From Octopus vulgaris (lineage: Eukaryota), in contig OX597817.1 in NCBI GenBank assembly GCA_951406725.2, forward strand, positions 140,058,001 to 140,122,000: a stretch of 64,000 nt of DNA. The letters run 5' to 3'. Position numbers and translations under genes: made by a program. The notes under the pieces were generated by a model that was given only the letters and a program-made list of their open reading frames with translations, was not told where the DNA came from and searched no databases. Below, piece after piece: positions 4,760 to 62,195 of the stretch (positions within the stretch are counted from its first letter, which is position 1; every line of letters starts with the position of its first letter).

Positions 4760-4906
4760 CCGGTTAACTAACACGAACGAAGAGGAAGCTATTCCTGTTA
4801 GCCAATAGGAGAATAGCTACAGTTTCAACAGATCATCCACGTGCTACACTTTTGTTTTTTCCCCTTTTCTAGTATATCTGTAAGTTTATATTTACGGACT
4901 CTCCAA

Positions 4907-5138
4907 GGCGGCAAGCTGGCAGAATCGTTAGCACGCCGGGCGAAATACGTAGCCGTATTTCGTCTGTCTTCACGTTCTAAGTTCAAATTTCGCCGAGGTC
5001 GACTTTGCCTTTCATCCTTTCGGGGTCGATAAATAAAGTACCAGTTACGCACTGGGGTCGATGTAATCGACTTAATCCCTTTGTCTGTCTTTGTTTGTCC
5101 CCTCTATGTTTAGCCCCTTTGTGGGCAATAAAGAAATA
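4907..5138 (+). mobile_element. SINE family B, full-length monomer
   Basis: GGCGGCAAGCTGGCAGAATCGTTAGC ... GTTCAAATT ... GTCGACTTTGCCTTTCATCCTTTCGGGGTCG ... AAAGAAATA; near-TSD TATATTTACKGACTCT (4885-4900 / 5139-5154). Confidence 0.88.
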
Positions 5139-7780: not shown

Positions 7781-8731
7781 TTAAAGTTGACTGAAATTGA
7801 TAGGTGGATTATGTGACTGAATTGGGTGCGTACGGATTCATGTCAGCATTGAGGTCGTGTTCAGTTCCCGTGGTTCAGCCCGTCTTTTTTCAGTCAATTG
7901 TTAAGGTTTAGTCGCTTTTAAATGGAACATATATTATTATTATATAAATATAATATAGTTACAGTCATTTTTGAAAAGGACTTGTGTGTCGCTCTTCTCC
8001 GTAATTTATGGCCTTCTGGTTTGTTTCCAAATTCATAAACATATATATTTGAATGAGTGGGTGTGCGTGTGTATGGTTACAATAAATGGTGTATAAATGG
8101 CGATAAATGGCGACCTGGCAGCTGGAGTCTTAGAGTAGCTGTCCACCGAAGTTCCATATAATATGGGAATGAAAAAGGAAAAGGAGGAAAATACAATGTT
8201 ACTAAAACAAAGACACATTCACAAGTAGACAAACAAATGGTTTGATTAGGGTATAATCAATTTGGCGAGGAAACTAAAGAGAAAATATTACGACGATGAC
8301 CACCACAGATCTACAATGGAAGAATTCACCACGTGTAGTTGAGGGTAAAAGAAATCGTTGAACGACAGTAAGTACGTCCAAAATTTATAAAGCAGTGACA
8401 TACATACATACATAGATACTTGTAGCACACATGTATATACGTGCAGAGTGAAAATAAATCACACTATTTATTGTGACGGACTACACTGCAAAAAAATCAA
8501 AAATTTCATTTCTGTTTACAAACTTTCTCCGTGTCTATACGCACAAATACTTTTATGTATACACACGCAATATTTAAGAAAAAAAGGAATATACACAAAA
8601 AAGAACGAAACATGTGTATATACACACACAATATTTGAGAACAAGGAATACACACAAAAAAGAACGAATCAAAACAAATATTTTATATTTTACTTTTATC
8701 GTATTGTTGTTTACATTTTCTGTCTCTACGG

Positions 8732-9960
8732 ATGACCAGAACCAACAGAATCGCCATGGTGAAATCCATAGCGGCGTGCGATAAGACTGGTCGCTGCTCT
8801 AAAATAGAACACTGCCCAGAAAATCACACCTGCCACATCTGTACGGAACCCGAAAATACGTTCCGTAATCGCTGGGTCGAATGTGGGACATGTCTCATCT
8901 CTGTCTGCCTCCAATGTGCCACGGACTTTCAGAAGATCCCAGGCCAAAAAAAGAGCCATCATAATGCTATGATGGATAGACTCTGGAAGATGGTTCAGCT
9001 TAAATCTTGGACTTTTCAGTGTCAGGCCTGCGTGCCTCCACAACCGACGATTGTGTCTCCCCTGCCACTCCCGTGGAGGAGGCGGAACAGCAACAGCAGC
9101 AACAACAAAATCAACCACAACCAGAGCAGCAGCAACAACAACAACAACAACAACAGCAGCAGCAACAACTAGAGCAGCAGCAGCAGCAACAACAAAATCA
9201 ACCACAACCAGAGCAGCAGCAACAACAAAATCAACCACAACCAGAGCAGCAGCAACAACAACATCAACAACAACAACAGCAACAACAAAATCAACCACAA
9301 CCAGAGCAACAGCAGCAACAACAACAACACCAATTGACCAGTGCGGTTCTTGCAGAACTGCAACAATCGATCTGTGCTTTAAAAGGGGAAGTAGCAGGAA
9401 TAAAAGCAACCATTCAGGTTGGACTCCACAATGAGGGGTCTTATCGGAATGCTCTGCTAAAGAACCTCCCTGTACCTGTACCTCTTGTCGCATTTAAGAC
9501 CGCGGATTCTGCCACCCATGAAGTCATTGCCATTGGGGTGCCAGAAGACATGGCTGATCTTCAGGCTTTTGCTGCCAACTCAGCCAAAGACCTAGGCTGC
9601 GTTCCCCCAACGGGTGCTATCCGCCTTGGACGACCTGGCCCAAAACCTAGGCTCATCAAGTTGTCTTTTACGGACCCCACTGAGGCAACCTCTTACCATC
9701 TGGCCTCAGTTAAAGCTGGGCGGGAAAATCGGACCACCTTCCGAACACGCCCAGGCTTACCGTCCGATGTACGTCCGAAGCTACGTGTAGTGGCTTCCCT
9801 GAATAGGAACTCAGCTCTACAGGAAAGCTTCAGTCTTCGGGAAGATGGACAAATCTGGAGATTTGTCAAGACTGCTGAAACGTGGAAGAGAGATACCAGC
9901 TGGTCTGAGTGCTCTCTACCCACAATAACTAAAAAGACTACAGCAACTCAGGGAAACTAA
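8732..9960 (+). CDS. LINE ORF1p: PHD-type Cys-rich finger, poly-Q tract, coiled coil, RRM-like region; one frameshift near 9059-9062
   Basis: CHIC..WVECGTC..CLQC..FQCQAC in ORF 8732-9172 joins ORF 9007-9960 (IAIGVPED, RLGRPGPKPRLIKLSF) if one C is added to a C4 run. Confidence 0.8.
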
Positions 9961-12782
9961 GCCAGAACAACCTGCCATCCTCTACACACCATCATAAACT
10001 GCGAGCAGGGTACAAATTGTTGTCCTTAAATGCTCGCAGTTTATGCAACAAAATACATTTGTTCAACGCCTACGTCAGAAGTGTTGACCCTGACTTCATC
10101 ACTGTCACGGAAACATGGGCGCATTCCTTACTCTGTGATGGGGTTTTCAACATTACGGGGTACAACCTCTTCCGTAAGGACCGCACTAACCGCCGTGGTG
10201 GTGGTGTGATGGTCTACGTTCGTTCAAATTTTTTGGTAATTCCTTGTGCCGATTTGAACGAATCACAAGAAGAAGTTTTTTTCTGTGACGTGCGTATGAC
10301 CATGTCAACACTCCTGCTTGGCGTTGTTTATCGTCCCCCAAGTTACCATCGGGACACACAGCTTTGCAATGTCCTCCGAGCTGCTGCCAGGAAAACAGCC
10401 ACTTATGTGTTTATTGCAGGCGATTTCAATCATCCTGAGATCGATTGGGAGACCTTCCATTGGCCACAGAGTGCAAACGATTTTGTTGAGCTTGTGCTGG
10501 ACTCAAACTGGTCACAAGTAGTCACCTCTCCAACAAGAGGCGACAACACCTTGGACCTGCTCTTCACCACAACTCCTGAAGCAGTTATCAATTGCACTAC
10601 GGAGGAACCTCTAGGTGACTCTGATCATGCTATGATCATCGCCAATCTGGCTCTTGCGGGCAACAAAAACCTGAACCATCTCCAATCTGCTTCCTTCGAT
10701 TGGAAGAGAGCAGATTGGAACCTGTACCACACTGAACTACAGCACCCAAACTGGCGTGAATTCTACAACTCTGGAGATGTGAATACTATACTCCAGAGTA
10801 TCCTGGACTCAATATGGGCAGCATGTGCAGCATCAGTGCCACGTAAACAAAAAAAGAAGAACCGCCCCAAAAGGGCAATTTGGGAAACTTCAGCGGTCCG
10901 ACTTGCCAGGAGGGAACGTCGGACTGCTGAACGGGAATACAGGTTGCATAAATCAGACACCAACAGGAAGAAGCGGAATAAATCCTCCAACCATCTCAAG
11001 CAAGTGACAAAAAAAGCAGTGCTTGAATTTGAACAGTGCATAGCAGCCAATCCTGACAGCAAGGTTTTCTGGAAATATGTGCACTCAAAGCAGAGACCTC
11101 ACTCTCCAGTGGGCCCTCTTCGCAACCCTCACACAAACCAGATCACTGACGACCCCAAGGAATGCGCAGAACTCATTGCCGAGTGCTATGCAAACATATT
11201 CACTGTTGAAAGTCAAAATGTACCATCTTCACCATCACTAACAGCAAACTCCATAACAACTATGGAATTTACACCTGCAATGCTGCGACGTCACCTTCAA
11301 AATAAGCGCAACTATGCCTCCCCTGGTCTCGATGGAGTTACATACCTGCTTCTCAAACGTGGCAGGCACTTCCTTTTACACCAGCTTTCTATTTTCTTCC
11401 AGTACTGTCTCAACAATGGTGCTACTCCGGAGCAGTGGAAAACTGCCAGTGTCATTCCTCTGTTCAAAAAGGGCGACCGCACATCACCTGTCAACTATCG
11501 CCCAGTCAGTCTCACTAGCTGTATTGCAAAACTGATGGAATCGTGTGTCAGAGAAACACTCTGGAACTTCTGGAGCTCTCACAGTCTCATCCGACCCTCA
11601 CAATATGGATTTGTCCCTAACTCCAGCTGCAGTGACCAGCTTGTCGAGTTCCTTGAGGACATTACTCAGATTACTGACAGTGGCTCATGGGTGGATGTTG
11701 TCTACCTTGACTTTGCTAAGGCTTTCAACTCTGTGCCACACAAAAGGCTTATGGTGAAACTCTCTGCAATGGGTGTGGGGGATGACCTTTTTAACTGGTT
11801 GAAATCCTTCATCCTCAGCCGAAAGGAGGTAGTCACAGTTCTAGGACAGCACTCTACACCATATGAGATGTCATCGGGTGTACCACAGGGATCTGTCCTT
11901 GGTCCCCTCTTGTTTGTGGCATACATTAACGACATAGATGCCAATTTAAAGAATGCCACAGTATTGAAATATGCAGACGACATCAAGCTGTACCTTGAAA
12001 TCAAGAGGACAGATCCTGATGTCTACAACTCTTTCCTGCAATCAGACCTAGACACAATGCAGCAATGGATCACAGACTGGCAACTGAAACTGGCTGTGGA
12101 CAAGTGTACCACCATGCATTTTGGGAGAAAAAACCCTGCGTTCACATACTCCCTCCACAACACTGATATCAAGAAATCCTCTTGTGAGCGTGACCTAGGC
12201 ATCACTGTCAGCAGTGATTTGCGTTGGTCAAAGCATATCTCTAAGATTGTCAGGAAGGCCGAGGGTGTCTTGGCATCACTCAGCAGGTCTTTTGTTAGCC
12301 GCTCTCCAGCCATCTATTTAAAACTGTATACAGCTATGGTACGACCACACTTGGAATTTGCATCATCAGTTTGGAACCCCTATCTTGCACAGAACATTGA
12401 CCTCCTGGAATCTGTCCAGAGACGTGCAACCAAACGCATACCCTCCATCAGACACCTACCATATTCTGAGCGCCTTGTTTCCCTGGGCATGGATTCACTG
12501 AAGCTCCGGCGTTTGGCGACGGACTTGGTAAACACCCACAAAGTTATCAACCACCTCACCAACAACAACACTGAACACCTTTTTGATCTCCATGTGTCTA
12601 ACACACGTGGACATGCCAACAAAGTCAGAAAACAATACAGCTCCCATGACTTTCGGAAACATTTTTTCACGCTCAGAGTTGCTGAAGCATGGAATAAACT
12701 GCCTGCGTCAGTTGTTGACTGCCATGACACTGCATCTTTTAAGGCCCTCATGCTTTCCGAAATCCGCCGAAACTACACCTGA
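9951..12782 (+). CDS. LINE ORF2p: apurinic-like endonuclease + reverse transcriptase
   Basis: Uninterrupted frame with LNARSL, VTETW, YRPP, GDFNHP, LDLL, SDH (APE) and NYRPVSL, YLDFAKAF, GVPQGSVLGPLLF, YADD (RT); frame open from 9933, first ATG lies inside the APE domain. Confidence 0.95.
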   Translation, partial: GKLSQNNLPSSTHHHKLRAGYKLLSLNARSLCNKIHLFNAYVRSVDPDFITVTETWAHSLLCDGVFNITGYNLFRKDRTNRRGGGVMVYVRSNFLVIPCADLNESQEEVFFCDVRMTMSTLLLGVVYRPPSYHRDTQLCNVLRAAARKTATYVFIAGDFNHPEIDWETFHWPQSANDFVELVLDSNWSQVVTSPTRGDNTLDLLFTTTPEAVINCTTEEPLGDSDHAMIIANLALAGNKNLNHLQSASFDWKRADWNLYHTELQHPNWREFYNSGDVNTILQSILDSIWAACAASVPRKQKKKNRPKRAIWETSAVRLARRERRTAEREYRLHKSDTNRKKRNKSSNHLKQVTKKAVLEFEQCIAANPDSKVFWKYVHSKQRPHSPVGPLRNPHTNQITDDPKECAELIAECYANIFTVESQNVPSSPSLTANSITTMEFTPAMLRRHLQNKRNYASPGLDGVTYLLLKRGRHFLLHQLSIFFQYCLNNGATPEQWKTASVIPLFKKGDRTSPVNYRPVSLTSCIAKLMESCVRETLWNFWSSHSLIRPSQYGFVPNSSCSDQLVEFLEDITQITDSGSWVDVVYLDFAKAFNSVPHKRLMVKLSAMGVGDDLFNWLKSFILSRKEVVTVLGQHSTPYEMSSGVPQGSVLGPLLFVAYINDIDANLKNATVLKYADDIKLYLEIKRTDPDVYNSFLQSDLDTMQQWITDWQLKLAVDKCTTMHFGRKNPAFTYSLHNTDIKKSSCERDLGITVSSDLRWSKHISKIVRKAEGVLASLSRSFVSRSPAIYLKLYTAMVRPHLEFASSVWNPYLAQNIDLLESVQRRATKRIPSIRHLPYSERLVSLGMDSLKLRRLATDLVNTHKVINHLTNNNTEHLFDLHVSNTRGHANKVRKQYSSHDFRKHFFTLRVAEAWNKLPASVVDCHDTASFKALMLSEIRRNYT

Positions 12783-13664
12783 TTATATATACACTTTAGA
12801 TGAGTTGTAGTGCACCTGAGCACTGTACACAATTATTATTATTATTATTATTTTTAATATTGTAAAACATGTATTTTTATATATTTCATGGACGTCATAG
12901 GAACATAGTTAAAAATGCCTGAATGAAATGAGGATGTCAGATTTATTTTACGTATAATTTATATTACTGATCTATCGTAACAAGCTGTATACAATTAAAA
13001 CAATATTTCGGCATAAAAATGCCCTTCTCATAGTTTATACGAATACTCGCAAATAACAAACAGAAAACTCAATCACAACAAAAGCTTTAATGATTTTAGA
13101 ATCTCATTTTGCTGCTACAAATGTTTCCCAGTCATTTACTTCCCAATCTCTTACAACAATTTCTGTGGAAGAAATTTCCAAACTGATTGGCATGAGATGA
13201 TTACTATTAGCAAACGACATCTTCTTTGGTGCAGTGTAATGAGTTCGCCTGGGTCTCGAAGACGCCATGATGTGAAATGGTGGTAGGAAATGTTTTTGAT
13301 ATTTTCTTTCCTGTTCGCTCAAGGATGATATCATTTGTTAAAGAGAGAGAAAGCAATAGCTAAGAAATATATTTAGCAACAGAAAGTCATTGTGAGGACA
13401 CCAGAGATTTCGTTATGATTAATTTTACATTGTTATTCTTTTAAACTATGAAAGGGCATTTTAATCCCGAAATATCTCTTTTAACTTTATATGATTTATT
13501 ATGAAAGATCAATGATATAAATTGAAATATAATTGTACTGTCTGACGTTCTTCTTTCAATACACACACATGTGCGTATGTGTGTGTGCATATAAAGCTAT
13601 ATATACTTGTGAAATATGTATACATATGTATCTTTCCGTAACTATTATATATATAAATTCGTAC

Positions 13665-15646: not shown

Positions 15647-15679
15647 CAGATAGACATCAAAAATAAAGATCGCCCCTAC

Positions 15680-15832
15680 TAGAGAATAAGTACTTTATCG
15701 ATTTCGATTTATCGATCCCAAAATAATTAAAGGCAAAGTTGACCTCGGTGTTATTTGAATTCAGATCCCAGAGAACCGGAACGAATAACCCAAAGCATTC
15801 AGCTCCTGCCGATTCAGCCAATAGACCGCCTT
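15680..15832 (-). mobile_element. Decayed SINE family B relative
   Basis: AAAGGCAAAGTTGACCTCGGTGTTATTTGAATTCAG matches the family B core. Confidence 0.6.
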
Positions 15833-15910
15833 ATGGGTGTGCGCGTGTGTGTATATAGGCGTATAAACGCGCACGTATGTGTGTGAGGGTTGCATACATA
15901 ATTTTATGTA

Positions 15911-16474: not shown

Positions 16475-17850
16475 GTCGTTTAATTCTAGGGCAATTCAGA
16501 TCTCAGTGAAACCTATGATCAAAGGTATTCCTACCATGACCACACCATTTTTTGGGTAATATGTAAGTTATAAATGACTGTGTCCTTTTATTTTAGATGG
16601 TAGGGTTGGATTTTGAGGAAGAATTTGGCTCTTTCTTTTAGTGGGTCATGCGGTAACTGCGCAGAAGACATACCAATGCGGTGTGGTGGAGATAACATTT
16701 ACATCGGAACAGGTCTAAATGGGAATTGATTTCTAATTCGATCCAAAAATGGCAATCACGATCGATAGTCAGACATTTATTCAGAATAATAAAACAAAAA
16801 GGCGAACATCTATGCAAATTAAGTAACTAGCACAGAACAAATGGGCTAATCAACATGCAAATTAAGCAGTTTGTGGAGAAGAACAAAAGTAAAATTAGTA
16901 CGCCATTTTCGACAGATGAAATTACGTTGTTAATGAACCAAAATATAATTAATGAATTACCTTTTGTTTCTTTTGTTCTCCTTCAGGGTAAATGTATGGT
17001 GGATGTGTGTGTGTGTTTGTGTGTGTGTGCGTATGTGCGTGTGTGACTGTGTATTTGTGTGTGCGTATGTGTACGTGTGTCTCTGTGTCTGTTGTTGTTA
17101 TTATTATTTAACACCAAGTTGGTTGTGGCCAAGCAGACATATAATTAAAGGCGTTCCAGCCAAGACCATCCTGTCTTTTTATTCATATAAAATACATCCC
17201 AACCAACACACTAGACAACGTCTTCGTTTTATTGAAAGAGCAGGGAGTATTTTGTGGGTGATTTGGTTGCTATCTCTAGCAGACCAATGGGCCACATACA
17301 AGCTCCTTTGTGATCTAGCTTGTGTCTGTGGTAGAATGTGTTGGGTGCGCGCGCGTATTTTAATTGTTTCCGATTTGTCCGGAAAATTTGTTGAATGTTC
17401 ATCAAAAGATTTAACAATCATTAATAACCACAAGCCATATATCATTAATCATTAACCAAAGATGTTGTTCCAGTTATATTTGAATGCAAATCAAGTGAGC
17501 CAAGTCATTGACTGAAGATAAATGATTGATAGGTAGCATAATCGTATCACCGAAAACTGGGTCTTTAGGCTTGTTTTTCACTTATCACGAGCAACATCTA
17601 CATAATTTCGTGTCATGTGATGTATGAATCATTGTTGTTTAACCCCAGGTCAACCGTGATTAATCGAAGGCATGGCAACCGTCACCACCCAAATATAGTT
17701 TTCACGAAAGTCTATCTATAACCATATTATCTCTTGCAACCTACTGCTCTTAAGACGGTGTTATTTGAGGGAGATTTGGCTACTCTATCTAGCATGATAT
17801 TTATGGTGTAGTTTGCAATAGCGAGGAGCTGTTTCCCTCGGCTCTCACCC
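16475..17850 (-). mobile_element. Three decayed copies of an old dispersed repeat (about 16475-16670, 17105-17310, 17630-17850)
   Basis: Shared motifs TTGTTGTTTAAC.CC, AAAGGYRTTCCAGCCAWGACCA, GATTTGGYTGCTATYTCTAGCAG; another copy near 22365-22500. Confidence 0.6.
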
Positions 17851-18074
17851 CTGAAAGAACTAAAAATGGTTTTACTCGAAGAATGACTCAAAATTCTTCT
17901 AAGAACTGTTCAGTATGAGTCAATTCCTCGATATATTAAAGCTGTGACCGATGTGAAAGGTGAATCAACACCAACTTAAATCATATAATTTTAATTTAAC
18001 AAAGCGCTTCCATTATTTTTCAAACCCCTACACACATACATATGTGTGTATATATAAATGTGTATGTATGTGTT

Positions 18075-18143
<69 letters not shown>

Positions 18144-18148
<5 letters not shown>

Positions 18149-18290
18149 GACGAACTGGAACGTGAAACTCCGAGTAACAGCTTTTGTTATATTTCTGCTG
18201 CTTTTAAATAAAGCATATTACTCTACCTCTGGTATTTGAGTACTCTTTTTCCCACCTTGTTTCGCATTTATGTGCTTACTCCGGTATATA
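18144..18290 (+). mobile_element. Penelope-like pseudo-LTR remnant with hammerhead-like motif
   Basis: TGT-CCGACGA-AC(TGGAAC)GT-GAAACTCCGAGT-A-ACA directly after (TA)n; AATAAA downstream. Confidence 0.45.
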
Positions 18291-18296
18291 TATACT

Positions 18297-18509
18297 CTGT
18301 TACTCTGTTACTTGTTTCAGTCATTTGACTGCGGCCATGCTGGAGCACCGCCTTTAGTCGAGCAAATCGACCTCGGGACTTATTCTTGGTAAGCCCAGTA
18401 CTTATTCTATCGGTCCCTTTTGCCGAACCGCTAAGTGACGGGGACGTAAACACACCAGCATCGGTTGTCAAGCAATGCTAGGGGGACAAACACACACAAA
18501 CACACACAC

Positions 18510-18530
<21 letters not shown>
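18297..18530 (-). mobile_element. SINE family C, 3' half
   Basis: Reverse complement of 31170-31378. Confidence 0.85.
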
Positions 18531-18573
<43 letters not shown>

Positions 18574-18593
18574 TGTTAATAATAATATTTATA

Positions 18594-18909
18594 AGCTTAA
18601 ACCTTATGAGCGATCGGTGTATATCGACCAAAGAAAATAGTGTGATATTGTGACAAATAAGCTTTCAACGGAAAAAAAGCGAGTTTTTACTACGCATGGG
18701 AATCGAAGCCATACCTCTTATATTCGTGATAAACGTGTTCATCGACTACACCAGTCTCCCCACTCACTTCTTTCCGTTAGATTTAAGAGTTACAATTTTG
18801 CAAATATAAGAGGTGTGAGTTTGATTCCCATGCATACTAAAATACCACTTTTTTTTTCGTCGTGTGCTTGTTAGACTAATTCATGATGATCGCTGAAAAG
18901 TTTTAAGCT
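18594..18909. mobile_element. Putative TIR element containing a tRNA-like A/B-box segment
   Basis: 22-bp TIR with 3 mismatches (18594-18615 / 18888-18909); minus strand TGGTGTAGTCG ... GCTTCGATTCC at 18690-18760. Confidence 0.45.
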
Positions 18910-18922
18910 AAAATTATTTTAA

Positions 18923-19808
18923 TTTCTTTACTGCCCACAAGGGGCTAAACACAGAGAGGACAAACAAGGACAGACAAACGGATTAAGTCGAATACATCGA
19001 CCCCAATGCGGAACTGGTACTTATTTAATCGACACCGAAAGGATGAAATGCAAAGTCGACCTCGGCGGAATTTGAGCTCAGAACGTAGTGGCAGACGAAA
19101 TACCTATTTCTTTACTACCCACATGGGGCTAAACACATTGAGGACAAACAATGACAGACAAACGGATTAAGTCGATTAGATCGACCCTAGTGCGGAACTG
19201 GTACTTATTTAACCGACCCCGAAAGGATGAAAGGCAAAGTCGACCTCCGCGGAATTTGAACTCAGAACGTAGTGGCAGACGAAATACCTATTTCTTTACT
19301 ACCCACATGGGGCTAAACACATTGAGGACAAACAAGGACAGACAAACGGATTAAGTCGATTACATCGACCCCAATGCGGAACTGGTACTTATTTAACCGA
19401 CCCCGAAAGGATGAAAGGCAAAGTCGACCTCGGCGGAATTTGAGCTCAGAACGTAGTGGCAGACGAAATACCTATTTCTTTACTACCCACATGGGGCTAA
19501 ACACATTGAGGACAAACAAGGACAGACAAACGGATTAAGTCGATTACATCGACCCCAATGCGGAACTGGTACTTATTTAATCGACACCGAAAGGATGAAA
19601 GGCAAAGTCGACCTCCGCGGAATTTGAACTCAGAATGTAGTGGCTGACGAAATACCTATTTCTTTACTACCCACATGGGGCTAAACACATTGAGGACAAA
19701 CAAGGACAGACAAACGGATTAAGTCGATTACATCGACTCCAATGCGGAACTGGTACTTATTTAATCGACACCGAAAGGATGAAAGGCAAAGTGGACCTCG
19801 GCGGAATT
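18923..19808 (-). repeat. Tandem array of headless SINE family B units, period 184 bp (4 full + 1 partial)
   Basis: TTTCTTTACT recurs at 18923, 19107, 19291, 19475, 19659. Confidence 0.95.
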
Positions 19809-19829
19809 ACAAAAACGTAACAGAAATTT

Positions 19830-20040
19830 AGTCACATGTGGGCAAATATGATTAGATAATTGTGTCGCTTTTCTTTTGTTCCAGTGCCTAAAGCTCAAAG
19901 TGTGGTTATTGAACCTGGCCTTGAAATTACCCTCTGTAAGTGTAAACTCTATAACCACTAAAGACACCGTTTCGACGAAGAAATACGTGGGCCTTACAGA
20001 GGGTAATTTCAAGGCCAGGTTCAATAACCACACTTTGGTC
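19830..20040. pseudogene. Penelope-like GIY-YIG endonuclease fragment in inverted arrangement
   Basis: Plus strand KYVGLTEGNFKARFNNH; minus strand LTEGNFKARFNNHTLSFRHWNKRKATQLSNHI; 45-bp perfect inverted repeat. Confidence 0.75.
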
Positions 20041-20241
20041 CCCTAAAGAAAACAGATTGAACATGCTTTCTATGTTATGTCCCAAGAAGAATTTATATAT
20101 TTTTATATATTTTTTATGTATTTTTATATAATTTTTGTGACGAAAAGTGCGAGCGATGTGTGAGTACGCAGGCAAGCAGAGTTATAACACAGTAATTTCC
20201 CTTTATTTAACGGTATTTTTTCATAGCGTTTTCAAATAGCC

Positions 20242-20304
20242 AGATAACCGAAGAGATGGTGTTGTGGATTTCCACTTCGGCATCTGAAACTCAGAGTTTT
20301 ATCT
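20242..20304 (+). ncRNA. Hammerhead-like motif with long helix II (U4C variant)
   Basis: AGATAA-CCGAAGA-GATG..GTGGA/TCCAC..CATC-T-GAAACTCAGAGT-T-TTATCT, ~200 bp 3' of the GIY-YIG fragment. Confidence 0.55.
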
Positions 20305-20329
20305 TGACTACCGAGTAATGTAACATATT

Positions 20330-20385
<56 letters not shown>

Positions 20386-20461
20386 TATAAGTGTGTGTGT
20401 GTGTGTGCGTGCGTGCGTGCATGCGTGGGTGTTTCTGTATACTTATATGTATATATGTAAA

Positions 20462-20690
20462 GGCGGCGAGCTGGCAGAAACATTAGCGCGCCGGGCGAAA
20501 TGCTTAGCGGTATTTCGTCTGTCGTTACGCTCTGAGTTCAAATTCCGCCGAGGTCGACTTTGCTTTCATCCTTTCGGGGTCGATAAATAAAGTACCAGTT
20601 TCGCACTGGGGTCGATGTAATCGACTTAATCCGTTTGTCTGTCCTTGTTTCTCCCCTCTATGCTTAGCCCCTAGTGGGCAGTAAAGAAAT
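20462..20690 (+). mobile_element. SINE family B, full-length monomer
   Basis: Homology to 4907-5138. Confidence 0.88.
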
Positions 20691-21259
20691 ATATAGGTAT
20701 ATATGTACACACACACACGCACACACAATTGATCCTTGAGAGCTCTTTAATGCTCCATATATTCCGTTAAAACTACTTTAACTACTATAAATATTTAGTC
20801 ATATTTTCTATCTTTCAAAAAAAGCCAGGTCTTAATACAACCGACGACCATATTGCGTCTTGTAATTGAAACAAAATGATTAAATAATCAACCGTGTGTG
20901 GTTCGCCTTCTTCTTTAAGTAGGCTGCAGAAATCCCAGTTGTACATTTATTACTGTTAAGTGTTTTAAGTATAATGAAACAGATCATGGCTCTCAGAAAA
21001 CTGGACTGTTGTGCTCAGCATTTGCGAGTCTCTCAGAGCATTGGGAGTCGGTAGTTTTCTCTTTTTTATCAATCAATTAGAAATAATATTGATTAGGTTA
21101 AACACATGCATGCACACACGCGCACATGCACACGTATATGCGTACATACAAATGTACACGCACGTGCAAACTTGCGCACACATACATGCATACATGTGCA
21201 CACACTTGTACACATATATGCACTCATACATATGTACACTTAAATATATTGAAATATAT

Positions 21260-21675
21260 ATTTCTTTACTACCCACAAGGGGCTAAACACGTAGGGGACA
21301 AACAAGGACAGGCAAACAGATTCAGTCGATTACATCGACCCCAGTGCGTAACTGGTGCTTAATTTATCGACCCCAAACGGATGAAATGCAAAGTCGACAT
21401 CGGTGGAATTTGAACTCAGAACGTAGCGGCAGACGAAATGCCTATTTCTTTACTGCACACAAAGGGGCTAAACATAGAGGGGACAAACAAGGACAGACAA
21501 ACGGATTAAGTCGATTACATCGACCCCAGTGCATAACTGGTGCTTAATTTATCGACCCCGAAAGGATGAAAAGCAAAGTCGGCCTCGGTGGAATTTGAAC
21601 CCAGAATGTAACGGCAGACGAAATACGGCTACGCATTTCGCCCGGAGTGCTAACGTTTCTGCCAGCTCGCCGCCT
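21260..21675 (-). mobile_element. SINE family B dimer (full unit + headless unit) with a single TSD
   Basis: 184-bp period (21261 / 21445); TTAAATATATTGAAATATAT at 21240-21259 and 21675-21694. Confidence 0.9.
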
Positions 21676-21689
21676 TAAATATATTGAAA

Positions 21690-22080
21690 TATATTAATGC
21701 AAGAATTCACAGCCAAACATAGTAAGAACGTTTGGGTATGCTTTGGACAACATTCTTCCAGGAGACATACAACAAACGCTGACTTATACCAGGGACTACC
21801 AAATGTGACATTGAAGATACAGCATAGAAGGATGAGTCTAGCTGGATACTGCATCAAACACATCGATGAAATTGCTAAGAAGCTAGTGCTCTGACAACCA
21901 ACGGAAGGAAGAACCAAGAGAGGAAGGAGGAAGACGACCTATATCGACAACTTGCTAGAGGATAGTGGTATGAGAGGGCTACAGGAGCTGAGGACAATTA
22001 TAGAAGATCGAGTTGAGTGGGGAAAACGTGTGGAAATAATCTTGGGGCGTCCTATGGGACGATCTAGACGAGATGATGGA
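21690..22080 (+). pseudogene. Decayed RTE-clade LINE 3' fragment
   Basis: LYQGLPNV..IQHRRMSLAGYC..LVL*QPTEGRTKRGR..YIDNL..DR.EW; GATGATG tail. Confidence 0.7.
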
Positions 22081-22744
22081 CAATATTTTTCCTGTTCTGG
22101 AATACGGCAAGCAACAACAAAACACATCCTCAACAACAAAGCAGCACTCATACTATGTACATAAAATACAATGCTGAACTCACTTGGAGACACGAAGCTG
22201 CATAGAGGGAGAAAGGAAAAAAATCTTTAAATGGTACAGGAAGAGAATCTCGAAAGGGTAAAAGAAGCGAAAGTGCTCGAAGTTAATGGACTGCCTTTTG
22301 TTTCTTTGGAATTTGTTAACGTATGATGGATGTGTGTGTGTATGTGTTTTTGGTTTTTTGTTGTTATTGGGATTTAACACCATGTTGGCTTTGATCGTGC
22401 AGACTCATGACTAAAGGCGTTCCAGTCGAGATCATCCTGTCTTTTTTCATGTATAGCGTACCTAGGTCAATAATAGACAATGTGTTCGTTGCATTGATAT
22501 AGCAAGGTGTTATTTGCGGCACAAAGCCGACAGTTTTCAAGTTGTGGGGCAGGAGGTGTTAGTCAATTACATCAACATCACTACTTGACTGGTACTTTAT
22601 TTTATCGACCTCGAAAAACTGGAAAGCATCTACAGAATTTGAACTTAGAAATGCAAAGAGCTGAACCAAATGCCATAATGAACTTTTTCGACATTCTAAA
22701 GATGCTTCCCTAACAACAACAACAACAACAAAAACAACAACAAT

Positions 22745-32411: not shown

Positions 32412-33169
32412 TTTTTTACGGTCATAGGGTTCTCTGGTAATTTCCTCTTAATCGCTTCAAATGTTTTTCTAAGTGCTCAAGCATTTTTCTAAGTGCAAGG
32501 TTGCGGCCATACTCCCGCATGTGTTTGTGCGTGTGTGTGTGTGTTTATCTATTATGGAAAATGAGATATTACACTTGATTCCTCTCATTCCTATCGCTAC
32601 TAAAGTAAACCAAACAAAAATCACGCGTTTAAAAGCCAGAAACCCGCCAATCGATTAACACCGATGATCAAGGTGTGACGTTAGTCCATTCCTATATTCT
32701 GGGGAAATTAGCGGAGTTATTCGAGCGTTGGACCGACTGCCTCACAGAATTTCTTCCGACTGTAGTCAATTTGGGTTCAAATGTCGTCGAGATCAACTTT
32801 GCTTTTCATCCTTCCAGGGTCGATAAAAAAAGCTGTCCATCCGGAGCAAAGGGATTGGCGAAACCGTAATCAGATCGGATGCCTTGCGGTATTTATTTGT
32901 TCGGTCGCTTTGTGTCCTGACTTCAAATTCCGCCATGATCTATTGGATCAGTAGACTTAATCCATCATCCAACTTAACATCACCACCAGGTACCATGAGT
33001 ACTTTTAGGAGACCACACTCTAACAAAGTCGCTCACAAGGTTTTAGTCGGCTCCGGGCCTGCAGTAGAGGACAGTTGCTCAAGATGTGGCGCACAAGGGG
33101 TCAAGTGGAAACTACGCTGCTACAATGCGAGGTCCTTAATCACAAGCTTATTTGCGTTCATTTTGTCTT

Positions 33170-35559: not shown

Positions 35560-36218
35560 CTAACAAAATAATATATAAAATATATGCATATTTAGATACA
35601 TATATGTACATACCTACATCTATATGTACATATACATGCATGTATAGGTACAGAACACCAAAAAAAAAAAAACGTCGAACACAATGAGAAACAAAACCAT
35701 GGAAACGGACTTTTTGCAAACAACGAAGAAAGAGAGTACAAGACATACAACACAAGGAATATTCCCCTTCTTCAGCTGCACCTGCTTCGTCTACTCCGTC
35801 TATATACTTGATGGTCTACTTCGTATATATATATGATGGTTGCTACCGTCGTTTTCGACGTATGAGTGTTTAAAGGAGAATATGTGTGTGTGTGTGTGTG
35901 CATTAGAAATACAATCAAAGCAAATCTTTCAATGTGTGTGGAAATGGAAAACATGACGTTTCGAGCCTAAGTTCGTCAAGGTATAAAACAGAGAAATGAA
36001 GAACAAAAAAAAATGTTTGTGTAAAGTTTACGAGTCATGGAAATGATTTATGGCGGAGGTGGGTAATTTGATGTGTGCGACTGCAAAAAACTGGGACTGG
36101 GAATGTGCAACGAACAAAATGTCTGTAATACATGAATGTAGTATAGAAGGTAGGATAATCGACCGGTGTGAGTATATTAGTATATTATATTATGTGAGTA
36201 TATTATATTATTCACAAG

Positions 36219-36450
36219 GGCGGCGAGCTGGCAGAATCGTTAGCACGCCGGGCGAAATGCGTAGCCGTATTTCGTCTGCCGTTACATTCTGAGTTCAAAT
36301 TCCGCCGAGGTTGACTTTGCCTTTCATCCTTTCGGGGTCGATAAATTAAGTACCAGTTACGCACTGGGGGTCGATGTAATCGACTTAATCCGTTTGTCTG
36401 TCCTTGTTTGTCCCCTCTATGTTTAGCCCCTTGTGGGTAGTAAAGAAATA
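36219..36450 (+). mobile_element. SINE family B, full-length monomer
   Basis: Homology; GTGAGTATATTA on both flanks. Confidence 0.88.
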
Positions 36451-36569
36451 AGTGAGTATATTAGTATATTTGTGCGTATGTGAGTGGAAAATTCTTGTTA
36501 TATGAGAGCGTGCGCATCTGCATATTTTGAAGGAGGGATGGAATCCCTCCCATTCATCTTCCCCGCTCC

Positions 36570-40020: not shown

Positions 40021-40247
40021 ACGGTGAGCTGGCAGAAACGTTAGCACGCCGGGCGAAATGCTTAGCGGTATTTCGTCTGCGTTACGTTGTGAGTTAATTC
40101 CGCCGAGGTCGACTTTGCCTTTAAACCTTTCGGGGTCGATAAATTAAGTACCAGTTACGCACTGGGGTCGATATAATCGACTTAATACCTATGTCTGTCC
40201 TTGTTTGTCCCCTCTGTGTTTAGCCCCTTGTGGGTAATAAGGAAATA
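40021..40247 (+). mobile_element. SINE family B monomer
   Basis: Homology to 20462-20690. Confidence 0.85.
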
Positions 40248-46328: not shown

Positions 46329-46769
46329 TAGATATATGATTAAAATAAAGAGCAGTTTACAATGTTTCACCAAAATTCAGAATTATAATTGGCACTAAAT
46401 GCGACATTGGCTAATAAATACGGTGATGCAACGCAAATTCATCGGAAGGGTTTGACGCAGATCTGTTCAGGCCGTTTGCAAGTATGATGCGGAGCGAACG
46501 TTGATGTGTTGTAAGCAACAGCTTCAAAGCAAAGGAAATAGAGAGAAGAGAGCATAATTCGAGCCAATGTACTCAACAAGGACAGATGACGAGATGGGAG
46601 GAACATTTTGTTGAAAGGAAAATAAGTTGGAATGAGATATGGAGGTGGACCACATCTCGCCTACAAATCTAGTAAGATGGAACGCCTCAGAAAATGATAT
46701 ATATATATCGATGCGGAAAAGTCGAAACTAGTATAAGAATAAAAAATATACAAGGATATACACACACGC

Positions 46770-46849
<80 letters not shown>

Positions 46850-46851
46850 GT

Positions 46852-48560
46852 ATGGTTAGTGAGAGCTGTGCGTGCCATGTACAGGGACGCTGTTAGTAAG
46901 GTGAGGGTTGGCAACGAGTACAACGAAGAATTCCGGGTGGAGGTTGGGGTCCACCAAGGCTCAGTCCTCAGTCCCCTCCTATTTATCATAGTCCTCCAGG
47001 CAATAACGGAGGAATTCAAGACAGGATGCCCCTGGGAGCTCCTCTATACTGATGACCTTGCTCTAATTGCTGAATCACTATCAGAACTCGAGAAGTTTCA
47101 GGCGTGGAAGCAAGGATTAGAATCGAAGGGTCTTAGAGTCAATCTAGCTAAAACCAAAGTCCTAATAAGTAGGAAGGTAGACAAATCTCAAACGCCTTCA
47201 GGTAGATGGCCCTGCTCGATCTGTAGAAAAGGCGTAGGTAGGAACTCTATAAGATGCACCAAGTGTAAGCTATTGACACATAAGAGGTGCAGCAATGTCA
47301 AAGGAAGGCTAACTGGGAAGATAGTTTTTGTAGGTGGCAGATGCTCTGGTGCAATAAACACTGAAAATGCGCAGAGACCATCTTCCGCCACATTCCAGGG
47401 AGAAAAACTTGAAATAGTTGATAGTGACCGTTACCAAGGTGACCAAGTTAGTAGCGGGGGTGGGTGTGCCGAAAGTGTAACTGCTAGAGTAAGAATAGCC
47501 TGGACAAAGTTCAGAGAGCTCTTACCTCTGCTGGTGACAAAAGGCCTCTCGCTCAGAGTAAAAGGCAGACTGTATGACGCATGTGTGCGAACAGCCATGC
47601 TACATGGCAGTGAAATATGGGCCGTGACTGCTGAGGATATGCGTAAGCTCGCAAAAAATGAAGCCAGTATGCTCCGTTGGATGTGTAATGTCAGTGTTCA
47701 TACTCAACAGAGTGTAAGTGCCTTGAGAGAAAAGTTGGACCTAAGAAGCATCAGATGTGGTGTGCAAGAGAGGCGTCTACGCTGGTATGGACACGTAGTA
47801 AGAATGGATGAAGATAGTTGTGTGAAAAAATGCCACACCCTAGCGGTTGAGGGAACCTGTGGAAGAAGTAGACCCAGGAAAACCTGGGACGAGGTGGTGA
47901 AGAACGACCTTCGAACTTTAGGTCTCACCGAGGAAATGAGCAGAGACCGAGACCTTTGGAAGTATGCTGTGCGTGAGAAGACCCGGCAGGACAAGTGAGG
48001 CCATAACCCATGGCCCCTACCTGGGACGTAGTCAGTCCACCTGTGCATACCTTCCTTATTGGGACACATAACTCTACTTGTGAAGACCTGTTGAGGCAAG
48101 TGAAAATCAAAAATCAAAGAATCAAATCAAAATCGAAATCGATCAACATCAATGGAATTTGTAGTTTTGTGGTACCAGTGCCGGTGGCACATAAGAAGAC
48201 CATCCGAACGTGGCCGTAGCCAGTACCGCATCGACTGGCCTCCGTGCTCGTGGCACGTAACAAACACCATCCGATAGTAGCCGTGCCAGCCTCGCCTGGC
48301 CTCCGTGCCGGTGGCACGTAAAAAACACCATCCGAGCATGGCCGTTCGCCAGCCTCGTCTGGCACCTGTGTCGGTGGCACATAAAAAGCACCCACTACAC
48401 TCACGGAGTGGTTGGCGTTAGGAAGGGCATCCAGCTGTAGAAACACTGCCAGATCTGACTGGCCTGGTGCAGCCTTCGAGCTTCCCAGGCCCCAGTTGAA
48501 GCGTCCAACCCATGCTAGCATGGAAAGCGGACGTTAAACGATGATGATGATGATGATGAT
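46852..48560 (+). mobile_element. 5'-truncated RTE-clade LINE (RT with inserted Cys-rich finger; long 3' UTR; (GAT)n tail)
   Basis: GVHQGSVLSPLLF, YTDD, GLRVNLAKTK, RLRWYGHV, RPRKTW; stop at 47998; tail 48540-48560. Confidence 0.92.
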
Positions 48561-50479: not shown

Positions 50480-53400
50480 TATTATTATTATTATTATTAT
50501 TATTATTACTTTTTTTTTTTCTTCTTTCAAATTTTCTTCCATTTCTTGCCGAGTGTCTTCCCGACTCCTAGGGCAAAGAAACTCATAGTGTATATTGGTA
50601 GGCCATTAAACCAAACTCAGTAGTTCGTTAATTTTTTTAAATTTTTTTTTTTTTAAGTTAAATTAAAATACGAGCAGCAACAGTTCTCACATCAACAATG
50701 CTCTTCTCAATACGTGTGATGTACCAGTTAAGACGATTTTTTGCACTTCTTGCAGGGATGGTAAGCCAGGGATCATTCTCATATAATTTTCGGTTCCCTT
50801 CTTGATCATTCCTAGTGCTCCTACGATCACTGGTATTGTAACCGCCTTGAGATGCCACATTTTCTCAATTTCAATGAGTAGGTCTTTATATTTTCTGAGC
50901 TTGTCAAACTCTTTCGCTGATATATTATGATCACAGGGGATGCTCATGTCGATCAATAAGCAAACTTTATTGTTTTGGTCTTTCACAACAATATCTGGTT
51001 TATTGGCCTTGATGGTTCGGTCTGTATGTACTGGAAAGTCCCACAGAATGGTTACATTTTCTCCTTCAGTTACAGCCTCAGGGTGGTGATTATACCACTT
51101 GTCGGCAGTTTTGATATTGTAATGCCGACTTATTAGCCAGTGGAGATATTGGCCAACTCTGTCATGTCTTAATTTATACTCCACTGGTGCTAAGACTTTA
51201 CATCCAGAGATTAGGTGGTCCACTGTTTCAATCATGTCGTTGCAGAATCGGCATTTTGGGTCTGCTCCATTTTTCATCACATTGGCCTGGTAGTTCCGGG
51301 TTAATAGGCTTTGGTCTTGAGCAGCCAGGATGAAACCTTCGCTCTCTGCTTTTAGCCCTGAGCTCCGCAGCCACTGATGGGTTTGCTTCTGGTCAACATC
51401 AGCTTGTTTGCTGCGGGTCACATATTTGCCGTACAGAGGTTTCTCCTCCCACCTATCAGCCAATTGCTCGTGCGCTTTTTTCATTGCCATCATTTTCACC
51501 TTCTTTGCAACAATAGTTGCCGTACTTCCCTCGGGTTGTTCAGTTTGGGTATCCTGCACGAGATCAATAGCAATTTTTTTGCTTTCCTTGATGATAGAAT
51601 GAAGCTTCTTTCGTCTCTCGTGATTTTCCACGAGCTTTAGCATCCAGTCATTCGATATTTCGAGATATTTGGCCAGTCCAATTGTGGTTGTTTTGTAAGC
51701 TAGTTCAAATTGGATCAGGCCTCGACCTCCTTGGGCTCTGGGAAGGTAAAGGCGATCTACGTCTGCCTTTGGGTGGTGCATCCTATTACAACTCAGCAGC
51801 TTGCGTATTTTTCTATCTATATTCTTTACTTCACTCATATTCCAGTTCAACACATTGTAACTATAAGTAACAACTGGAACTGCTAAGGAATTTATAGCTA
51901 ACACCTTGTTACGTGCATTTAGTTCAGATTTCAGGACTGCACGAACTCTCCTATAACATTCCTTCCTGATTTTCTCTTTCATGCTTGCATGCTGAATACC
52001 AGAGCCTTCATTTATCCCTAAATATTTGTATGTCTGTTCTTGCTCAAGCTCTCTTATGACTGTGTCAACATCTAACACGACTGAATTTGTGGTCTTCACT
52101 TTCCCTTTCTGGAAAGTGGCCTTGGCACACTTCTCAAGTCCAAACTCCATCCCGATGTCATCGCTGAATGCTTTCACGGTGCGCAATAGGCCTTCAAGTT
52201 CATTATTGTCTTTACCATAAAGTTTTAAGTCATCCATATAAAATAAATGGCTTATTTTTTTATTGGCAATTTTATACCCATACCCTGTTCTGTTTAATTC
52301 ACTTGTAAGGGGTATTAGGGCTATGCAGAATATTAAAGGTGAAAGTGAGTCACCTTGAAAAATTCCACAGTTGATGTTTATATTTTCTGAGGCAAGTACT
52401 CCATTAGAGTGGTGTAATTTGAGATTCGTATTCCACAACGACATATTGTGCTTCAGGAAGTTTGAAATCACAGGGGAAATTTTAAAGATGTCCAGCGATC
52501 TCAAGATCCATGGATGCGGTATACTGTCGAAGGCCTTTTTATAGTCAATCCATGCGGTGCTGAGATTTCTGCGCTTGTTGTGACAGTTCTCAAGGATCAT
52601 ACGATTGATTAGCAGTTGATCTTTGCATCCGTAAGAGCCTCGGCGGCACCCTTTTTGTTCAATTGGGAAAATATCGTTCTTCTCCATGAATGCATATGTT
52701 TTCTCCGCCAGGATAGATGTTAGGATTTTATACGTGGTGGATAGACAGGTTATAGGCCGATAGTTTTTTGGAAGGTTGGTTTCGTTATTCTTTGGGAGTA
52801 GGTAAGTAATGCCACTTGCTAACCATTCAGGTGTTTTCTTTGGGTCTCTCAAAATTCCATTGAGCAGCTGAACTAGCTTACCGTGTGCGCACGGGAGCGA
52901 TGCGAGCCAGAAATTCGGCACCCTATCTTTACCGGGGATTTCCAATTATGGGCCTTCGTGAGTGCCTTTCTTAGGTCTGCTATTGTGATGTCTTCCCATG
53001 CTTGTTGTTGTAAATTTTGGTAGGATCCTTCAGTTTGTATAATCCAGTCTGCATTTATGTTGTACGTCTTCTTGTCACTCCAAATCCTTTCCCAAAAGTT
53101 TTGAACTTCTTCCATGGGAGGGGGTCTTTAACGGTTACTTTCTCCTTCCCTATTTCTCTGTAGAATTTTTTGGCATTGGATGTGAACAGCTTATTTTGCT
53201 TGTAAAACTTGTTTCTCTTCTCAAATCTTCGTATTCTTTGGGCTTTTGCTTGGACTTTTTGTTTCAGCGTTTCTTTTATTGATATCAGTTCTTCTCTTGG
53301 TGAGGATCCAAATTTTCTCTTCATCTTTCTTCCTGTTCTGGATCTTACATCATTTCCACATATTAGTTCATTTAATATTGATATTTCCCCTCTCATAAAT

Positions 53401-54484
53401 TCAATCTCTTTTTCAATTTTACTTCTCCAGGTTTGATTTCTTCCCAGGTTTTGTTTTCTTTGTTTTTTCGGGGGCATACAGCTGGTTTCAATTGCCCTAG
53501 CAGAAGCGTAAATAATTTCATTTAACTCAGTAAAATCAGGTTTTAATTCTCGTATTATTTCATTTGTTACATAGTTGCCAATTTGGATTTGTTTTTTATT
53601 TTGGTTTGTATTTGAGAGTTTATGAAGCGGTTCTCTATCATTCATACTTGTATGTCTTACAACTTCAAGCGTATTCAGGATTTTCTGCCTCATTTCTGCC
53701 ATAGACTCTCTGTGTTCTTCAGCAAATGCGAGATCTTCAGTTACTGTTGTTTTTTCGTTTTCCTGGCTATCTTTAACAGGTACAATAGAATTTCTTGTAT
53801 CTTCAGGCCTTTGCGTACTTTGGTCAGATGGCAGTCTTTCAATTAAGCCTCGTGGCGGGCTATACTGTTCATCTGATTCTTCATTTCCTTTGTGTCTTAT
53901 ATTTATGTCATTTTCCGTTGCGTGCTTGATCGCACTTATTTCACTGTCTGTGAGCCTGTTATTTCTAAAGATATCCCTCCTCACATTTGCTAATTTGTTC
54001 TCGTCCAAATAGGGCCTACTGTCTTGATTCCGTGTTCTCCATATACTGTAAGAGTTTGCGGTGTGTCTCTCTTGAGATGGCCTACCTAATGCATAGTAAT
54101 AAGCGTATATTACTTCTTTATACTCTTCTCGGGTCCATTTGTTCCGCTTACATTTTTCTTTCTGTGGTGGTTGTGGTGGTGAACTTGGAGGGCTCGAGTT
54201 GGGGGATTTCCCGTTCAAGTGACCATCCATGTCCGTATTCGGAGAAGAGTTTGTGCCAGTTGATGACTTTTCGATCCCAGGCTGGCTCTTCCCTGGGGGA
54301 CGCGCTTCCAGATTAACCATAGGACAAGCGATTTGGTATACTGATTTAGTTTTCCTTTTAGTTTCCAAAAACATTTTGGTGCTACGATAATGTTATCATT
54401 TTTTAGCTTTGATTGGCTCGTGGGGAGACGGCCATCATTGCCGTTACAATTATAATCGTACCATTATAGCAGCCGTAGTCGGCT
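50480..54484 (-). mobile_element. Apparently full-length R4/Dong-clade non-LTR retrotransposon
   Basis: Single long ORF with two frameshifts, 3' UTR, A-run and (TAA)n tail; TAA-like repeats also at the inferred 5' flank. Confidence 0.9.
50687..54374 (-). CDS. R4/Dong polyprotein: RT + CCHC knuckle + restriction-like endonuclease (frameshifts at ~53122 and ~52935)
   Basis: NYRPITCL, EQKG, DYKKAFDS, GIFQGDSLSP, YMDD, YKYLG, CRFC..HLISGC, RHD, KPDIVV..ID..K..KY; three ORFs join if one base is added in each of two G/C homopolymers. Confidence 0.93.
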
Positions 54485-61809: not shown

Positions 61810-62195
61810 TTTACTGGTATTTATCGATCCCTAAGTGGGTGAAAGGCAAAGTCGACCTCGGCAGAATTTGAACTCAGGACGTAAAAACCCAGAAGAAATA
61901 CCTATTTCTTTACTACCCACAAGGGGCTAAACACAGAGAGGACAAACAAGGACAGGCAAACGGATGAAGTCGATTATATCGACCCCAGTGCGTAACTGGT
62001 ACTTAATTTATCGACCCCGAAAGGATGAAAGGCAAAGTCAACCTCGGCGGAATTTGAACTCAGAACGTAACGGCAGACGAACTACGGCTACGCATTTCGC
62101 CCGGCGTGCTAACGTTTCTGCCAGCCCGTCGCCTTCCCAGAAGAAATACCGCTAAGCATTTTGTTCGACACGCTATTGCGCCTGGCAGCTCGCGA
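61810..62195 (-). mobile_element. Young SINE family B copy (61903-62135) nested in an older family B copy, 15-bp TSD
   Basis: CCCAGAAGAAATACC at 61888-61902 and 62136-62150; old body to the left, old head to the right. Confidence 0.88.

Follow-up and report, generated by a model that had tools for sequence, protein, structure and literature searches.

Background

Tandem arrays derived from SINEs are built of units that are shorter than the parent element, and the array at 18922-19808 in Octopus vulgaris raises the question of why the 3' end of each unit is joined to one and the same internal position of the next, and of whether that boundary was set by the amplification of the array or by the retrotransposition of the SINE itself. 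The array lies in what is here called the window, the whole 64-kb stretch of DNA that was analysed; the evidence comes from this one window, which was selected for holding the array.

SINE-derived satellites have been reported from squamates as sSat1-3, with alternating monomer patterns noted and with a definition that includes a subtelomeric or heterochromatic location (Vassetzky et al. 2023, PMC10702118). Among rodent SINEs, B2 and Dip commonly form head-to-tail multimers, and multimers of B1 have been treated as well (PMC8466645). In this study, the extent, units and junctions of the octopus array were analysed together with the other copies of the SINE in the window, focusing on the recurrence of the junction, the choice of its position and the mechanism that may have produced it.

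Results

Extent and junctions of the array

The tandem repeat of about 184 bp claimed by an earlier, sequence-only reading was recovered by TRF as an array at 18922-19808 with a period of 184, 4.8 copies, 95% matches, 0 indels and a score of 1620. Alignment to a full-length 231-nt copy of the SINE at 20461-20691 placed it on the minus strand. The coordinates of its units and of the other features are listed in Table 1. Each unit had been described as the SINE minus its first ~48 nt, which holds for four units (positions 49-231, or 49-230 in A5) but not for the 5'-most one, whose start is position 81. Loss of the A box was likewise borne out, the A-box-like stretch (about positions 11-25) being absent from the array units; the B-box-like stretch (about 74-85) is retained. 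Both boxes are presumed ones, labelled by eye against consensus sequences. All four junctions within the array (4/4) read GAAATA joined directly to GGTATTTC.

Neither a target-site duplication (TSD) nor an intact head was found for the array. Its 3' neighbour, a MITE-like element that is single-copy in the window, may have displaced the TSD, and given this neighbour and the truncated 5' end, the array may either have expanded in place or have arrived as a multimer. The idea that the 5' flank is a decayed SINE head was rejected, as its alignment to three heads was not significant (P 0.27-0.76). An 8-mer in this flank, at 19809-19840, resembles SINE positions 64-71 near the expected register, in an alignment that is not significant.

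Table 1. Features of the window discussed in the text; SINE positions are numbered along the element
Feature	Coordinates	Strand	Remarks
Array unit A1	19657..19808	-	SINE positions 81-231, 5'-truncated leading unit
Array unit A2	19473..19656	-	SINE positions 49-231
Array unit A3	19289..19472	-	SINE positions 49-231
Array unit A4	19105..19288	-	SINE positions 49-231; most divergent of the inner units
Array unit A5	18922..19104	-	SINE positions 49-230; 4 differences from A1-A4 in last 42 nt
MITE-like element	18580..18921		22-bp outer and 53-bp inner inverted repeats; adjoins array 3' end; outer limits by eye
Full-length monomer, reference copy (231 nt)	20461..20691	+	16-bp TSD with one mismatch; 13-bp head stem-loop 32-44/49-61
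Full-length monomer	4906..5138	+	16-bp TSD with one mismatch, begins TATATTT
Full-length monomer	36218..36450	+	19-bp TSD displaced by 31-nt filler
Near-full-length monomer	40022..40247	+	In (TATG)n tract; TSD imperfect
Dimer	21259..21675	-	Full-length unit 21675-21443 (C at 49) and 49-231 unit 21442-21259 (G at 49)
Full-length SINE, inserted at position 49 of older sister SINE	61903..62134	-	Decisive nested insertion
Host SINE 5' part, positions 6-63	62136..62193	-	Ends in first TSD copy (62150-62136)
Host SINE 3' part, positions 49-129	61818..61902	-	Begins with second TSD copy (61902-61888)

Variation among the units

Alternation of variants from unit to unit had been taken as a hint that a 368-bp dimer was amplified. 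The alternation exists as written, with position 77 reading -, T, C, T, C and position 89 reading C, G, C, G, C from A1 to A5, but it is limited to these two linked sites, which lie 12 nt apart. Positions 118 (T, T, G, G, T) and 123 (A, A, G, G, A) are linked to each other and are anti-periodic, failing 3 of 3 lag-2 comparisons; they group A1, A2 and A5 against A3 and A4, and together with 77/89 all four haplotype combinations occur. Inter-unit distances were 3, 6, 6 and 14 at lag 1 and 4, 8 and 8 at lag 2. Units two apart are thus no closer than neighbours (permutation P = 0.4 over 120 orders), the two-unit periodicity is absent and the amplified dimer is left without support; a higher-order (dimeric) repeat, in which lag-2 likeness exceeds that of neighbours across all variable sites, was not found in the array. 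Judged by these variable sites, the array is best described as a recombinant mosaic rather than an amplified 368-bp dimer.

The suggestion of a local ancestor common to the units has held up. When the phylogeny of units within and between loci was reconstructed, the array units formed one local clade (support 96/97), and 7 fixed differences separate them from the majority among the seven other copies. Pairwise, array units differ at 3-14 sites, mostly by private single changes, and from the 7 other SINE copies they show 11-21 differences over ~151 sites. The last unit stands out at its tail: A5 departs from its four companions at 4 sites of the last 42 nt and at 2 of the first 141 (Fisher P = 0.026, borderline or weaker when adjacent AA is counted as a single event). 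A tail unlike those of the inner units is as expected for the joining of two different copies, the hybrid unit being copied afterwards.

Recurrence of the junction

The fixed junction is confirmed beyond the array, since all tail-to-head junctions in the window (6/6), spread over 3 of the 7 loci, fall at position 49. Junction positions that vary at random among loci, which had been named as the outcome to fear, were not seen: two loci that the earlier reading left unused, with junctions at 21442/21443 and 61902/61903, repeat that of the array. The feature is real and its junction is fixed, and the array in itself is ordinary.

The case at 62 kb is a nested insertion into a SINE of a divergent sister family (80-84% identity). 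The TSD copies within 61818-62193 are identical at 15 of 15 bases and bear the private substitutions of the host (host positions 49-63), and the TSD score has a null P of ~0.006. Because the host is divergent and the TSD is private to it, this nested insertion is independent of the array, and its 15-bp target-site duplication indicates that position 49 was cut and served as a target of TPRT. Two independent events would share one nucleotide by chance at a rate of ~1/230; clean nested events number one only.

At 21 kb, the dimer as a whole sits within a perfect 21-bp TSD (21674-21694 and 21239-21259). Its C-49 head followed by a G-49 unit suggests that two templates took part. The second unit has G49, C65 and G200 in common with the array units, so that array and dimer could have a single shared origin; it is separated from the array units by 18-21 differences over ~151 sites and is not grouped with them in the tree.

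The SINE family

Seven loci of the 64-kb window carry the 3' end of the SINE, with 84-93% identity to the reference copy. TSD-like repeats of 15-21 bp were present at 6 of 6 non-array loci and the 3' end is invariant, and these are the TPRT hallmarks of a LINE-mobilised SINE. At the four monomers and the dimer that lie in ordinary DNA these repeats measure 16-21 bp; in one case the repeat is displaced by 31 nt, and in another, within a microsatellite, it is imperfect. At 36168-36470 the 31-nt filler between the 5' TSD copy and the monomer consists of partial target repeats, which suggests repeated priming at the 5' joint.

With 231 nt the element falls within the size set by SINEBase for a short interspersed repeat (<1 kb), a definition that also asks for at least 60% identity to tRNA, 5S or 7SL RNA over 60 nt (PMC3531059). 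ARAGORN found 0 genes, and the 65 Rfam matches to E=10 obtained for 17500-22500 include no tRNA. The element seems to behave as a LINE-mobilised SINE of the tRNA type; its tail matches no LINE end within the window. Octopus tRNA-derived SINEs named OK, OR1 and OR2 were reportedly described by Ohshima and Okada in 1994, and the present SINE, which is like them in its octopus host and apparently tRNA-type head, may well belong to one of these. OR1 and OR2 are listed as tRNA-derived SINEs of octopus (PMC4824008, PMC4758252, PMC5804259). The idea that the body of the SINE is the Meta domain of MetaSINEs, a 66-bp domain following the head, gained no support from a comparison by eye, in which the SINE showed no likeness to BivaMeta and BivaMD (supplement of PMC4824008); a short AAATGAGTAC-like likeness to BivaCORE-SINE2, a CORE-SINE, was likewise noted by eye only.

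Old sister-family remnants were seen at 15650-15860, 22500-22720 and 32690-32960, with a common central domain and different heads or tails, and the last of them consists of two pieces in tandem. Two patterns of the SINE gave 0 matches in GTDB genomes. In translated database proteins, the SINE was carried by 1 of 2 and by 1 of 31 candidates, plus 13 HMMER matches, and none of the 14 distinct matches (13 from HMMER and 1 more) spans the junction, which is a weak test. One of the 14 is an O. bimaculoides record, P0129 is unrelated and most resemble sister families. P0123, aminopeptidase-like by eye, includes an antisense translation of the SINE over ~40 residues, which probably reflects an exonised copy or an artefact of the gene model.

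Choice of position 49

The first 8 target bases of the five insertions into non-SINE DNA agree (consensus about K-R-T-A-T-K-T-M), and their leave-one-out score was reached by 0 of 5000 random sets, the null being random sites that were not microsatellite-matched. TATTT occurs at +3 in 2 of the five (P=1.3e-4) and TA in 4 (P=4e-4). In a matrix built from these targets, position 49 ranks fifth of ~450 sites in three monomers and eighth in a fourth, and it belongs to the best 3% of sites across the window. Positions near 200, 215 and 187 outscore it, and its rank moves to 13-25 when the 21-kb site is omitted and to 15-85 with longer matrices. That the target matrix alone singles out position 49 was therefore rejected; with higher-scoring SINE positions and an unstable rank, sequence preference is only part of the answer.

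Position 49 is also the first base 3' of a 4-nt loop closed by a 13-bp stem (32-44 with 49-61) that includes four G-U pairs. Across six heads 77 of 78 cells of this stem are paired; covariation amounts to one compensatory change from T-G to G-C, matched by 36 of 500 shuffles. The six full-length copies have two head types, T44/G49 (n=2) and G44/C49 (n=4), the closing pair of the stem being kept in both. All 6 junctions start with G.

SINE bases 51-56 (TATTTC) are the exact complement of the invariant last six bases of the SINE (GAAATA). When target bases +3 to +8 were compared with the complement of the 3' end, the match was exact at 21 kb, 5/6 at 4.9 kb and lower at the other three. Snap-back synthesis as the origin of the terminal GAAATA was rejected, the end being unchanged where the target is not its complement. 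Inspection by eye found no consistent T stretch 10 nt upstream of the six targets.

Discussion

A probable self-insertion hotspot as the source of the junction

We favour, at a probability of roughly two in three, the explanation that the 3' end of the SINE is joined to position 49 through a hotspot for self-insertion, followed by expansion at the DNA level of the resulting two-unit structure, probably by slippage or unequal exchange. The initial step, seen at one locus, is the entry of a copy into position 49 of another with duplication of host positions 49-63. The nested insertion would then be converted into a dimer of the form head + (49-231) by either of two routes. Annealing of the cDNA, by its 5' end, to the homologous host may produce a 184-bp duplication in place, or Pol III may read through the insert into the 3' part of the host, the whole RNA being retrotransposed. 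Read-through is possible because array units contain no run of at least 4 T, and the TSD-flanked dimer at 21259-21675, with its C-49 head and G-49 second unit, fits this latter route. Local expansion and recombination between units would finally yield the mosaic 5-mer. Position 49 may have been chosen for its fit to the TA-rich target preference of the family, and it is likely to be singled out further by lying at the edge of the hairpin loop or by the complement of the RNA 3' end.

A bolder version, which we hold to be speculative and rather unlikely, is that of a self-homing SINE. The RNA 3' end GAAAUA would pair with TATTTC on the non-primer strand and free the primer strand, so that the SINE's own head, which has this site in perfect form at the edge of a stem-loop, becomes its best target, and Pol III read-through of the nested products would generate multimeric source genes. 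If true, it would mean RNA-guided target choice on the strand opposite to that of the known TPRT microhomology, and a path from SINE to satellite that is inherent in the element.

Other explanations of the junction

The junction could have been made once, in a single ancestral dimeric source gene, with arrays and dimers as its retrotransposed descendants and the 62-kb case as a coincidence. The 21-kb dimer, enclosed by one 21-bp TSD and sharing G49, C65 and G200 between its second unit and the array, speaks for such a source, but that second unit lies outside the group of the array units, at 18-21 of ~151 sites from them, and at 62 kb the junction recurs at the same nucleotide in a different, older host with a host-private TSD, which chance would allow in about 1 of 230 cases. 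We consider this unlikely as a full account; a dimeric source can, at the same time, be combined with the hotspot explanation as a route of spread. The junction might instead have been formed on RNA, either through a cut in the hairpin loop or a stall of RT and a jump of RT to the 3' end of the same or another RNA, or through rolling-circle synthesis on a circularised 184-nt RNA. The exact placing of position 49 at the 3' edge of the 4-nt loop, the RNA-type character of a 13-bp stem with four G-U pairs, the local ancestor shared by the units and the 5' truncation of the leading unit would all agree with this. Such a process cannot, however, yield the 62-kb structure with its host head upstream and 15 duplicated host bases, and one rolling-circle event predicts identical tails, whereas the last tail differs; an origin on RNA thus seems quite improbable to us. 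Retrozymes are defined by a hammerhead or similar ribozyme in each unit. A ribozyme- or retrozyme-driven repeat was rejected, as neither a hammerhead nor any other ribozyme family occurs among the 65 Rfam matches to E=10 (17500-22500), which also counts against the RNA-level junction.

That the units are monophyletic and mosaic shows exchange at the DNA level during expansion, and the end of the tail has a 5-nt word in common with head positions 37-41, so that unequal recombination or replication slippage in one SINE through this microhomology might be thought to suffice, with no retrotransposition. Slippage on the 5-nt word would retain positions 42-48, but none of the 6 junctions has them. 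The 62-kb TSD and the recurrence at three loci would be left unexplained as well, making a purely DNA-level origin very unlikely. As for an artefact of assembly or polishing, a danger already named by the sequence-only reading, mixed reads of near-identical units could give rise to the four-gamete mosaic (77/89 versus 118/123). It could alter the number of units or the order of variants, but not the junction, which is found with intact TSDs at two more loci; the window contains no N and the units are separated by 3-14 sites, mostly private substitutions. We regard an artefact as highly improbable, and the hotspot for self-insertion remains our preferred explanation.

Comparison with known systems

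The array resembles a short sSat locus. As in squamate sSat1-3, whose units range over 70-290 nt, its tandem units are shorter than the parent SINE and form part of it (184 of 231 nt) (PMC10702118). It has 3 middle monomers, against a working threshold of at least 4 for sSat, and the between-locus homogeneity expected of concerted evolution is not seen, with 11-21 of ~151 sites differing between loci versus 3-13 within the array (PMC10702118). With just these 3 middle units and no homogenisation between loci, the term incipient satellite used in the earlier reading overstates the case, the more so as a retrotransposition hotspot at position 49 explains the fixed junction better than anything specific to the array. 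Short squamate sSat loci have variable boundaries, whereas octopus copies, even dimers, have one junction; in the part of that paper available to us, unequal recombination or, as more likely, insertion at the same locus is favoured, and no fixed self-insertion site is described (PMC10702118).

The tandem HCD-SINE arrays of the blood clam Scapharca broughtonii (Martelossi et al. 2024, PMC11481361) likewise come from a mollusc and have head-truncated units with fixed truncation points within one TSD pair. Their inner units are truncated at both ends or split by repeated TSDs, and unequal recombination has been raised for them (PMC11481361); octopus units, in contrast, each keep their 3' end exactly, and the junction is marked by a TPRT event of the nested kind. 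In the rodent B2, B1 and Dip multimers, adjacent SINE copies occur and integration of SINE into SINE has been considered, as here, but the insertion considered there is into the tail and the units stay full-length (PMC8466645), whereas the octopus site falls between the A and B boxes of a tRNA-like head and leads to 5'-truncated units.

Preferred sites in multicopy elements, 16-bp TSDs and tandem copies by sequential insertion are also described for the crocodilian SINEU and Tx1-Mar and for Keno, Kibi and Koshi (Kojima 2015, PMC4494074), where the target is another element (Mariner) or an RNA gene, while that of the octopus SINE is its own head. The Tn-TA signature of RTE/Bov-B (PMC13295347) is similar in its weak TA-type preference and 10-20-bp TSDs; RTE/Bov-B elements end in microsatellite tails, unlike the octopus SINE with its invariant end and no repeat tail. 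Among the papers listed by full-text searches, no title or abstract opening tells of a SINE whose own head contains a fixed hotspot for insertion, or of such arrays in octopus, a coverage that leaves aside most subscription journals, Repbase and Dfam and does not establish absence. Insertions of Alu into the tail of another Alu are known.

SINE-derived arrays as such are known from squamates and bivalves, and the interesting part of the present case is the probable self-insertion hotspot. Such a hotspot would explain the dominance of one unit boundary, a point left open in the papers on SINE-derived satellites, and the boundary would be set by the retrotransposition machinery ahead of satellite-type amplification. 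SINEs account for ~11.6% of the O. vulgaris genome (PMC13282606), so that many events of this sort may be present in a public assembly, and computation alone is enough to test the claim. Should the hotspot fail genome-wide, what remains is an ordinary short SINE-derived array. A hotspot would matter for the annotation of octopus repeats too, in which multimers can be split into spurious families.

Other elements of the window

The window consists of animal DNA that is rich in AT and in microsatellites and crowded with pieces of retroelements. An apparently near-intact LINE at 8639-12850, perhaps of the CR1/L2 group, has upstream ORFs rich in Cys and in Q, an open frame of 949 codons that includes endonuclease and RT domains, and a (TTA)n end; it was possibly active recently. 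An RT element at 50480-54392 (minus strand), presumably R4/Dong-like, shows a 752-codon open frame, a C-terminal KPDIVV-type nuclease motif and a (TAA)n end, with decayed relatives at ~23-29 kb. An RTE-like 3' fragment at 46676-48560 ends in (GAT)n, and its 3' UTR contains a tandem repeat of 61 bp; the RT fragment at 46856-47995 has 85% and 87% identity to proteins of Octopus bimaculoides and O. vulgaris, the other matches listed having 41-71%.

At 19896-20037, 88 nt from the array, lies a MITE-like element with perfect 45-bp terminal inverted repeats and no second copy in the window. A second interspersed family has 7 copies, 75-95% alike, at 18285-18510, 31156, 33234, 44069, 45332, 56520 and 59628, and its copy at 18285 runs into (CA)n/(TA)n.
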